A stretch of 31,176 nucleotides of DNA, from contig CAYUNO010000001.1 of assembly GCA_964446075.1 (NCBI GenBank), positions 1-31,176 on the forward strand. The letters are read 5' to 3'. Shown here piece after piece: positions 19,168-20,936 of this stretch. The position numbers and the translations under genes are program-made. Position 1 is the stretch's first letter, and every line of letters begins with the position of its first letter. The stretch comes from an uncultured Flavobacteriaceae bacterium (GTDB taxonomy: Bacteria; Bacteroidota; Bacteroidia; NS11-12g; UBA955). Below the pieces are notes generated by a model, which saw nothing but the letters and a program-made list of their open reading frames with translations, was not told where the DNA came from and made no database searches.

Positions 19168-19803
19168 TTACAACGGTCTAACCACAAAGGCCCAAATTTT
19201 CATTTTAACATCTACTCCAGCACCGTAATTGGGATTTCGTAAACCTAATGTGATTGAGTTCGTGCTATCCGTTGGGGTGTCAAGAATGTCGATGTATTTA
19301 TCGTGTATATTTTTGGTTTGGGGTTTAGCGATGAAGGATTGAAAGGTGTCTTGGAAGTTAAATCGGCTAGCCTGACTGGAAGGTAATACAAATAAGTCAA
19401 CGGAAGAAGTGCCCGTATTTACTAGGTTTAATGCACCCAATAGTCCCCAAGCGTATGCCACAAAAGGATCTTTGGTTAATTTTTGTGCCGCGGCGGGTAC
19501 AACTACTTTTGCAAGTTCGGCCACAGGTTCTGGACCTGCGCCCATCCAATAGGCCCAATAAACCGTTCTGGGTGGGAGTTTAAAAGTTCTAGTAATTACC
19601 GATTTATTGGAAATCCATGCGGTGCTCCGCGCACCCAAACGAAAGGTCTCTTCAACGATTTCAAAAGGAATTACATTATCGTTGTATAAAAGTGCGGGTT
19701 CGGGCTCTGGCTCGCAACTACTTAATATTACTAAGAAGGTTGCAACTGCCGATAGACTTAATAATCGGCGTAAAGAATCGCTTAATTTATTCCATCCCAT
19801 CAT
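19168..19803 (-). CDS. Hypothetical lipoprotein translationally coupled to the CDC-like gene
   Basis: ATG 19803 overlaps the cytolysin TGA (ATGA); lipobox ILSSC-EPEPEP; no family recognised. Confidence 0.7.
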   Translation of the reverse strand: MMGWNKLSDSLRRLLSLSAVATFLVILSSCEPEPEPALLYNDNVIPFEIVEETFRLGARSTAWISNKSVITRTFKLPPRTVYWAYWMGAGPEPVAELAKVVVPAAAQKLTKDPFVAYAWGLLGALNLVNTGTSSVDLFVLPSSQASRFNFQDTFQSFIAKPQTKNIHDKYIDILDTPTDSTNSITLGLRNPNYGAGVDVKMKIWAFVVRPL

Positions 19804-20936
19804 AAGCACTCGTTAACTTTATAGGTGAATCCGGTATGGGTCATTAGGGTAGAATTATTTTTTAGGTACCGCGCTTCATAACCAACCGGCACACAGCCAT
19901 TTCTATGATTGAATTGGCTGCCTTCGTTCATGTATTTGTAAACGTCGTCCAAGGTTTTTAACATAACCGTGGGTCCTGGTGCGGCTTCTACGGTTAATTG
20001 AATATCTGAAACTATTTGTTTTTGACTAGCGGTTAAACTGCCCGACATTCCCTTCAATACCAATTCCACACAGGCTTTTACTTCCCGTTGGCTGTAAGAG
20101 GAAACTACTCTGGCTAAAGCCACTCTGCCGTAGGATACGCTGGAAACATAGGCGGGCGGATTATCGTCTGAAATCAGTCGTTTCAAGTCCGAAACATTCA
20201 CATTTGCCCCAAAAAATCCGGCGGGATTGCTGGGGTATTCTACGTTTACGTTGAAGTAAATATTCTTTACCATCATATACAGGGTGGTAAAACCGGTAGT
20301 ATTAATTTTTTGGAATTTCGTGGATAATCCCCCAGCCAGGAATCCGAAATTCAGTCCAAGGTCCATGAGCGCTTGGTTTTCGGAATAGGTAATTTGTACA
20401 TTTTGGTAGGTGTAGGTGGGTGGCATGAACCAAAAGAGTTTGGAGATATCGTCAAATTCTGTTTGGTAATTGGCGTTGGAGGGCGAGGGCAAGTTAAAGC
20501 TGGTGGAGCCTTGGGTACCTTGAACGGTGTAGTTCAGTGGGTCACGGGGGAAATTGCCAAGGGAAACCAATCTTCCGTTTTCACGGAGGTATTTGCTCTG
20601 AACGATATTTCCAGGCCAGATATCCGCTTTATCCTCAGAATAGAAGTAATCGAAGGAGTTAATGCGTTGAATACGGTCTACTGTATAGGTTGTACATTTG
20701 GTTTGCGTGCCGTTGATTAATAGATCTTCTAGAATGGTATCTCGAAATTTAACGGAGTTCTGGGGTGATGGAGGTGGAAGGGGCGATTCGTCTACTGCTG
20801 CATTGATGTTGTCTACAGGTTTAATGGATCCTTCTTTTTTACAAGACGAAACATAGAAACCACCTAGAAAAATGCAAAATACGTAGATATTTCTTTTGCC
20901 AAATTGAAAGAAATTATTCCTGTTGAATTTGCACAT
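19800..20936 (-). CDS. Cholesterol-dependent-cytolysin-like (CDCL, thiol-activated cytolysin family) lipoprotein lacking domain 4
   Basis: IWPGNIVQ, YSENQALMDLG (TMH1 region), KNIYFNVNVEYPSNPAGFF, PPAYVSSVSYGR and VPVGYEARYLKNNS are collinear with the perfringolysin D1-D3 core. There is no undecapeptide/D4; lipobox VSSC. Confidence 0.85.
   Translation of the reverse strand: MCKFNRNNFFQFGKRNIYVFCIFLGGFYVSSCKKEGSIKPVDNINAAVDESPLPPPSPQNSVKFRDTILEDLLINGTQTKCTTYTVDRIQRINSFDYFYSEDKADIWPGNIVQSKYLRENGRLVSLGNFPRDPLNYTVQGTQGSTSFNLPSPSNANYQTEFDDISKLFWFMPPTYTYQNVQITYSENQALMDLGLNFGFLAGGLSTKFQKINTTGFTTLYMMVKNIYFNVNVEYPSNPAGFFGANVNVSDLKRLISDDNPPAYVSSVSYGRVALARVVSSYSQREVKACVELVLKGMSGSLTASQKQIVSDIQLTVEAAPGPTVMLKTLDDVYKYMNEGSQFNHRNGCVPVGYEARYLKNNSTLMTHTGFTYKVNECL

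Follow-up and report, generated by a model that had tools for sequence, protein, structure and literature searches.

How does a pore-forming protein of the cholesterol-dependent cytolysin (CDC) type reach a membrane when the domain that recognises the membrane is missing? This question is raised by a pair of overlapping lipoprotein genes within a stretch of 31,176 nucleotides from an uncultured Flavobacteriaceae bacterium (GCA_964446075.1, contig CAYUNO010000001.1), the whole of which is referred to as the window. In the two-component CDC-like (CDCL) systems, the small subunits (CDCL-S) are unable to form pores alone, and a single large subunit (CDCL-L) carrying domain 4 (D4) binds to the membrane and recruits the small ones (PMC11169675). 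This known mechanism is inapplicable to a solitary protein without D4, such as the product of the first gene of the pair. A total of 56 related loci from freshwater genomes and metagenomes were examined, and in all of them the short CDC-like gene was linked to the second gene, which encodes a lipoprotein hereafter called the partner. The reading slightly favoured over immunity is that the partner supplies a recognition or platform function in trans, for which we estimate a probability of about 0.4 from sequence comparison.

The cytolysin core and its overlapping gene

The product of the first gene (378 residues) matched the Pfam family Thiol_cytolysin (PF01289) with an E-value of 9e-32 and a score of 110.7 bits, well above the gathering cutoff of 25, over profile positions 89-338 of 353, and thus belongs to the CDC/CDCL superfamily. 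Its orthologues form 48 clusters with lengths between 362 and 385 residues. The protein carries a signal peptide of the signal peptidase II (SpII) type, as do the two-component CDCLs, and the lipobox Cys (C32) is invariant among 13 aligned relatives. The motif F/Y-F/Y-Xn-YGR, the defining mark of CDC and CDCL proteins (PMC7527733), is present as Y227-F228 and Y269-G270-R271, the latter being invariant in the 13 relatives. An earlier note on this DNA, made from the letters alone, had described a lipoprotein with a CDC core on the basis of IYF...YGR, and this description was borne out.

Among solved structures, the best matches of the core were suilysin and perfringolysin O (PFO), both at an E-value of 2e-20 and within domains 1-3 only. 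The profile of the core clade matched PFO at 4e-54 over PFO residues 5-381, again domains 1-3. Since this match stops at about residue 381, and since a 519-residue relative from Maribacter shares the same C-terminal ...Y-R-L-E-S-C and then runs on for about 110 extra residues, the core ends at the junction of domain 2 and D4, as the earlier note had supposed. D4, with its undecapeptide and its Thr-Leu pair for cholesterol recognition, is absent. The same clade profile gave E-values of 1e-38 to 4e-54 against Gram-positive CDCs, 8e-20 against EaCDCL-L and 6e-19 against EaCDCL-S (8g32). The core is thus nearer to the Gram-positive CDCs than to the CDCL small subunit, a relation that the earlier note had missed.

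Both segments that align with the transmembrane hairpins of PFO and suilysin show an alternating pattern of hydrophobic and polar residues, as judged by eye from the sequence, and may correspond to the helical bundles that in CDCs turn into amphipathic hairpins. The hinge of the core is deviant. In CDCs, a Gly-Gly pair opens the alpha-beta loop; it is kept in 92-99% of CDCLs, and the first Gly is intolerant of substitution in PFO (PMC7527733). In the core the pair is replaced by P320-G321, with Pro in place of the first Gly in 11 of the 11 clade members aligned. The Gly-Gly pair is present in the distant locus L020 (A-G-G-P) and in the Maribacter relative, and the second Gly (G321) is invariant. 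With respect to activation, both CDCL subunits are processed by proteolysis (PMC11169675). At the position compared with the TK/TR site of the protease-cleavable activation loop, in the region equivalent to the beta-tongue, T79-K80 stands directly before C81 in the window core, P-V-P-C is found in L011 and L013-L015, and E-E-A-C in L020.

Two Cys residues of the core, Cys81 (20694..20696) in the N-terminal strand region and Cys377 (19806..19808) as the penultimate residue, are invariant in 13 of 13 aligned relatives, long Maribacter CDCLs included. From the sequence, a Cys81-Cys377 disulfide may staple the C-terminus of the core at the place where D4 would be attached.

The stop codon of the core gene overlaps the ATG of the partner gene within the tetranucleotide ATGA, as had been read from the window before, and either an overlap or a gap of less than 40 bp is retained across all the orthologous loci. 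The ATGA arrangement suggests that translation of the two genes is probably coupled. The partner is 211 residues long when read from this ATG, or 213 from an upstream GTG. A chance pattern of open reading frames (ORFs) is dismissed because both genes have many orthologues under purifying selection. Upstream of the pair, TACCTTTAC is located at 20963..20971 (-), 27 bp 5' of the ATG of the core gene, and AAATACCTTTACA is conserved among the window, L028 and L031 despite divergent surroundings. We take TACCTTTAC to be a candidate Bacteroidota -7 promoter box (TAnnTTTG-like).

Linkage, selection and the partner domain family

All 16 partner genes taken from 14 species-level genomes and two ENA/JGI contigs stand directly behind an orthologue of the short cytolysin. 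Identities range from 46 to 98% for the cytolysin and from 59 to 98% for the partner, and the flanking genes vary between lineages. A metagenome scan seeded with the cytolysin alignment gave 80 loci, which were annotated by local hidden Markov models (HMMs). In the window clade the partner is located immediately downstream on the same strand (40/40). The other 39 loci all carry long CDCLs (458-555 residues, 23-29% identity, mostly marine) with a C-terminal extra domain; each of these stands alone within 6 kb, and a partner-domain gene was found near none of the 39. The pair persists in the distant lineage of L020 at 33% identity for the core and 32% for the partner, with one gene inserted between them.

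The window contains one CDC core and one partner domain, in agreement with the single CDCL of the earlier note, and no second CDC core was detected either in the window or within 6-10 kb in the 56 related loci, so that no D4-bearing large-subunit gene is adjacent to the pair. Many metagenomes from freshwater, lakes and rivers contain the exact sequence, and the hosts of the pair appear to be planktonic freshwater bacteria of the Flavobacteriales type. In the loci examined the module lies among housekeeping genes, is vertically stable and has no mobile-element genes around it. At one locus (L034:7199-7779, +) a second copy of the partner gene is located about 1.2 kb downstream of an intact pair; this copy is disrupted by two or more frameshifts, and the position directly upstream of it is not taken by a cytolysin gene. 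An intact orphan copy was found in none of the 56 loci.

Both genes are under purifying selection. The ratios of nonsynonymous to synonymous divergence (dN/dS, Nei-Gojobori) were between 0.03 and 0.15 for both, among pairs with unsaturated synonymous divergence. The protein identities of core and partner track each other, the partner being slightly more conserved at long range. The synonymous divergence itself (dS) was discordant, 0.43 for the core vs 0.21 for the partner between the window and L028 but 0.22 vs 1.07 between L028 and L029, a sign that co-occurring strains may have recombined, with breakpoints inside the module. Parts of the core and the partner gene are represented in contigs of freshwater metatranscriptomes, two of which (19492-19823 and 19774-19855) span the stop/start junction. 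These contigs, which are strandless and could include carried-over DNA, indicate that core and partner are co-transcribed in situ.

The partner was confirmed to be a lipoprotein by its signal peptide and lipobox (L-S-S-C30). The mature form has about 182 residues and about 20 kDa. No match was found in Pfam, NCBIfam or PDB, either by sequence or by profile searches with the alignments A1 and A2. A word-indexed search gave 97 clusters of homologues at 55% identity or more, all from uncultured Bacteroidota, unnamed and without any Pfam domain; nearly all were 195-211 residues long, with few fragments. A total of 66 columns are invariant among 23 representatives, and the signature motif is invariant in A1, while its T, both W and G are nearly invariant in A2 (63 sequences). 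By an exhaustive profile search of 1.84 billion representatives, just 54 clusters with the partner domain were found. These fall into three groups, the first being the family proper, the second a small number of further stand-alone lipoproteins (about 200 residues), and the third secreted proteins of about 293-458 residues in which the partner domain is located C-terminal to another beta-rich domain. Ten of the last group were scanned and gave no significant Pfam match. The long forms (P0105-P0148; for instance L025:7001-8182) share a conserved tail, R-K-P-Q...V-P-V, and are encoded by solitary genes in soil and other metagenomes; one of them, P0107, showed a weak GOLD/EMP24-like match in its N-terminal beta-rich domain, the long family being otherwise unannotated. 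A homologue search starting from the sister-lineage partner P0100 gave only the match to itself.

The structure of the partner was predicted by AlphaFold2 (AF2). With a shallow alignment of 23 sequences the model reached a pLDDT of only 59; after addition of distant relatives (63 diverse sequences) it rose to 88.8, with a pTM of 0.84. The predicted fold is a beta-sandwich of nine strands, a jelly-roll of about 180 residues, with helices at mature residues 62-69, 75-78 and 84-89 inserted in it. The amphipathic central segment pointed out in the earlier note (residues 92-128) corresponds to these three short helices. Foldseek search with the model gave generic jelly-roll and beta-sandwich matches with TM-scores of 0.3-0.42, including the PNGase accessory domain, ephrin-receptor ligand-binding domains, CBM4, CBM16, GOLD, furin P domains and viral capsids; the top 50 matches included no chain of a CDC or CDCL.

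The possibility that the partner is a degenerate CDCL, named in the earlier note as a refutation, is excluded, for the HMM of the CDC core matched none of the 148 partner-domain proteins and the predicted fold is a jelly-roll. A detached form of a known D4 found no support, as both the hhalign comparison with the C-terminal domain of the Maribacter CDCL and the PDB searches were empty, a weak test because D4 domains are mutually unrelated. Judged by sequence and predicted fold, the partner is a member of a new domain family and is not recognisably kin to any known D4. Another refuting condition of the earlier note, a partner that occurs apart from cytolysins, does not apply to the family itself, which is linked in 56 of 56 loci, and does apply to remote members of the superfamily: the stand-alone P0101, P0103 and P0123 and the long P0108 and P0111 are not located beside any cytolysin.

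Proposed role of the partner

The core and the partner would make up a single module that is obligate, transcribed as a unit and probably coupled in translation, and the metatranscriptome contigs crossing the gene junction were counted in favour of a single module. Its first product would be a lipid-anchored pore-forming core of the CDC type (domains 1-3) without a membrane-recognition domain, and its second a lipid-anchored beta-sandwich protein of about 20 kDa that does in trans the job of D4 or of the large subunit. If both lipoproteins are exposed at the surface and interact with each other, the partner could bind to a component that is conserved in the target membrane or on the surface where assembly starts, and as a platform it could recruit the core and license its oligomerisation and the insertion of the beta-hairpins into a pore. 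In its fuller form this proposal describes a split cytolysin, in which recognition of the membrane or target has passed from a CDC-type core to a separate, coupled beta-sandwich lipoprotein, a facultative inner-membrane protein (see below) is the third player, and the action is directed to bacteria, algae or protists; this fuller form is put forward still more tentatively.

The earlier note had offered two roles for the partner, an immunity protein or a targeting module encoded apart from the core. Several lines of evidence lean to the partner as a targeting or platform subunit. The core lacks D4, whereas the characterised CDC and CDCL pores need a D4-bearing subunit (PMC11169675), and no D4-bearing gene is nearby. 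The strict downstream linkage is kept despite varied flanks and persists in L020, and the complementary distribution, short cores with partner and long CDCLs without, points in the same direction. With respect to size, the partner is in the class of the D4 of EaCDCL-L, which is about 19 kDa (PMC11952106), and its fold shows weak matches with modules for carbohydrate and ligand binding. The presence of the domain in unrelated secreted proteins and in cytolysin-free lipoproteins fits a generic binding module that was recruited, and the low dN/dS of both genes gives no sign of an arms race. The proposal has to face a number of opposing observations. Among the 148 partner-domain proteins from the 1.84 billion representatives searched, none was fused to a CDC core, and the partner resembles no D4 of CDC or CDCL in sequence or fold, an objection tempered by the lack of relationship among D4 domains themselves. 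D4 domains are hypervariable, in contrast to the partner, which equals the core in conservation. The complementary distribution represents one or two evolutionary events and not 79 independent ones. A large subunit could be encoded elsewhere in the genome, as the searches covered the 31-kb window and 6-10 kb per related locus, and because the first hinge Gly is Pro, canonical pore formation itself is unproven.

Three other roles were weighed against this one. That the partner is a self-protection (immunity) lipoprotein, which on the producer surface blocks oligomerisation or insertion of its own cytolysin, as BcdI does with the CDCL pair of Bacteroides fragilis and CD59 with complement, is somewhat less likely but a serious rival, and a precedent exists: BcdI (BF1274), a lipoprotein of 30.4 kDa encoded upstream of CDCL-S, blocks pore formation and protects the producer (PMC11169675). 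A lipoprotein gene coupled downstream of a toxin-like gene and strictly co-inherited with it recalls the order of toxin-immunity pairs, and the frameshifted second copy in L034 recalls orphan immunity genes. The partner, however, differs from BcdI in mature size and in its downstream position, and intact orphans are missing from the 56 loci. Diversification is not seen either, the partner dN/dS being as low as that of the core. Furthermore, the 39 long solitary CDCLs, which should be equally in need of immunity, have no partner-like gene, while relatives of the partner domain exist without any cytolysin, and immunity leaves the route of the D4-less core to the membrane unexplained.

A handling factor on the producer, that is, a chaperone or holder of the pro-form that maintains the short, aggregation-prone core as a monomer, or else a protein that assists in displaying the core at the surface or in loading it into vesicles, with neither target recognition nor immunity, is unlikely. 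Activated EaCDCL-S oligomerises spontaneously without lipid (PMC11952106, PMC11169675), so a short core may need a holder, and coupled expression together with equal evolutionary rates would suit a stoichiometric complex of two lipoproteins that both carry K and acidic residues after the Cys; but EaCDCL-S and BfCDCL-S manage without such a factor, and the wider use of the domain, in secreted proteins of unrelated kinds, would not be expected of a dedicated chaperone. Very unlikely is a module that is not a toxin at all, in which a lipoprotein of CDC fold has lost canonical pore formation and serves with the partner a surface process of its own cell, for instance in nutrient capture or in the biology of the envelope or of vesicles. 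The Pro at the substitution-intolerant hinge position across the clade, the absence of D4, the vertical stability of the module under purifying selection among housekeeping genes, and the planktonic freshwater life of the apparent hosts would agree with it. Against it speaks the conservation of YGR, of the aromatic pair, of the second hinge Gly and of both hairpin-forming segments; Pro-Gly is still able to form a tight turn, and no alternative function is known for the CDC fold in bacteria with intact motifs.

If the split cytolysin is real, it is the first CDC/CDCL system whose second component has no CDC fold. With its two defined proteins, the module lends itself to studying how a CDC core without a tail arrives at a membrane and perforates it. 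A beta-sandwich domain family of about 50 clusters at 50% identity, so far unannotated, also gains its first functional context. Abundant freshwater plankton of the Flavobacteriales type widely carries the module, which points to interactions based on pore-formers among freshwater bacterioplankton, a setting in which such weapons have hardly been explored. Should the partner instead be an immunity protein, it would represent a second, unrelated class of CDCL immunity factor.

Table 1. Positions of the two overlapping genes, their motifs and segments, and a neighbouring gene remnant in the window
Feature	Position	Strand	Basis
378-residue D4-less CDC-like lipoprotein gene (domains 1-3 only)	19800..20936	-	ORF, PF01289, clade profile vs PFO
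Core signal peptide and lipobox V-S-S-C32, then K-K-E	20841..20936	-	translation
Segment aligned to CDC transmembrane hairpin 1, residues 187-218	20283..20378	-	alignment with PFO and suilysin
I-Y-F, residues 226-228, first half of the F/Y-F/Y-Xn-YGR motif	20253..20261	-	motif per PMC7527733
Y-G-R, residues 269-271	20124..20132	-	invariant in 13 relatives
Segment aligned to CDC transmembrane hairpin 2, residues 282-316	19989..20093	-	alignment with PFO and suilysin
A-P-G-P, residues 319-322, at the CDC Gly-Gly hinge position	19971..19982	-	alignment
ATGA stop/start overlap of core and partner genes	19800..19803	-	DNA reads GAG TGC TTA TGA TGG GAT
211-residue partner lipoprotein gene, jelly-roll beta-sandwich family	19168..19803	-	ORF, homologues, AF2
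Partner signal peptide and lipobox L-S-S-C30, then acidic E-P-E-P-E-P	19714..19803	-	translation
T-V-Y-W-A-Y-W-M-G-A-G-P-E-P, superfamily signature (P..T.YW.YW.G)	19525..19566	-	alignments A1, A2
Helical, partly hydrophobic insert, partner residues 92-128	19420..19530	-	AF2 model
Third-gene remnant (gene for zinc ribbon, transmembrane segment and periplasmic domain)	21027..21137	+	tblastn with L028 protein; DNA alignment with L028 and L031

Neighbouring genes and comparison with known systems

A facultative third gene, which the earlier note had missed, is located within about 1 kb of the pair in 14 of the 25 loci that have at least 1.5 kb of flank on both sides. Its product consists of a cytoplasmic N-terminal GYF_2 domain or zinc ribbon, one transmembrane segment and a conserved periplasmic domain of about 120 residues. 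Four arrangements were found: upstream on the same strand, between the pair, upstream and divergent, and downstream and convergent. The gene was never found near the long solitary CDCLs. In the closest relatives of the window (L028-L032) it is upstream and divergent, and intact copies are located at L028:4773-5633 (-) and L031:649-1497 (-); other lineages have GYF_2 in place of the zinc ribbon. The window retains only a remnant, in which ATA replaces the ATG start and an in-frame deletion of about 250 codons has joined the zinc-ribbon codons directly to the final 8; its translation is IKFCSNCGTELLPNANFCPSCGNKIIRNGSPWKTNN, ending at the stop codon. A small transmembrane ORF that lies between the third gene and the cytolysin in L028 and L031 is missing from the window. 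An essential immunity factor is unlikely as the identity of the third gene, because it is absent from about half of the loci and deleted in the window with the pair intact, and is therefore dispensable for keeping an intact pair.

Downstream of the partner, an ORF for a small membrane protein of about 70-120 residues, SHOCT-like at its C-terminus, directly follows the stop codon in several relatives (L003:1152-1403, L005:894-1145, L028:7737-7988, L034:5963-6220, L046:3798-4061, L059:1403-1660). It is absent from the window but present in L003, which is 98% identical to it, and a similar ORF follows the cytolysin-unlinked P0101 (L017:6640-7002), so that the association of the partner with SHOCT may be independent of the cytolysin. 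In the window, the region directly downstream (11417..19076, -) is occupied by a block of six genes encoding a 1162-residue protein with CUB and SprB domains sorted by the type IX secretion system (T9SS), a 160-residue protein, a 319-residue protein (weakly dihaem-cytochrome-like), a 448-residue protein with a twin-arginine-like signal, and lipoproteins of 162 and 305 residues. The block is collinear in L031 down to 13802, the part that is covered, and absent from L028, L029 and L032, in which the lpxB region follows the partner almost directly; it is a strain-variable insertion or deletion beside the module. As members of the system, the genes at 18159..19076 and beyond were rejected, since they are absent from L028, L029, L032 and all the other loci. 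On the other side, a gene divergent from the cytolysin gene (21187..22788, +) encodes a cysteine-rich protein of 533 residues with a weak T9SS C-terminal sorting domain and is conserved in L028 and L029 at 77-89% DNA identity.

In the literature searched, no description of a short CDCL with a non-CDCL lipoprotein as partner was found. The pair is similar to the two-component CDCLs with respect to the tight two-gene operon and the F/Y-F/Y-Xn-YGR motif, and the core resembles EaCDCL-S and BfCDCL-S (Elizabethkingia anophelis and Bacteroides fragilis), which are SpII lipoproteins of about 365-380 residues with a D1-D3 core and no D4. It is different from these systems in that the second gene encodes an unrelated jelly-roll lipoprotein with no CDCL-L nearby, in the much closer relation of the core profile to Gram-positive CDCs than to CDCL-S as estimated from the profile E-values, in the Pro-Gly hinge in place of Gly-Gly, in the sequence at the position of the TK/TR activation site, which varies within the clade, and in its hosts, which appear to be freshwater plankton and not gut or insect-gut bacteria. 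Compared with the classical CDCs (perfringolysin O, suilysin and pneumolysin), the core shares the best match over domains 1-3, YGR and the hairpin segments, but it is a Gram-negative lipoprotein with an obligate partner gene and lacks D4, the undecapeptide and the cholesterol pair.

A single CDCL gene is carried by 821 of 1578 CDCL-bearing Bacteroidota genomes, and these solitary CDCLs, the commonest case, are uncharacterised (PMC11169675). The window clade is like them in having one PF01289 gene per locus and unlike the 39 solitary CDCLs sampled here, which are long and have no partner, in being short and always partnered. As with BcdI, the partner is a lipoprotein in an operon with a CDC-like gene; it is set apart from BcdI by size and gene order, being about 20 kDa when mature and encoded downstream, overlapping the stop of the core gene. 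Complement, in which the C5b-8 platform recruits the pore-former C9 into the membrane attack complex and the anchored inhibitor CD59 blocks it, is a conceptual parallel only, without homology. Altogether, the core is a member of the CDC/CDCL superfamily with a deviant hinge and, judged by its nearby genes, is neither a classical CDC nor a two-component CDCL.

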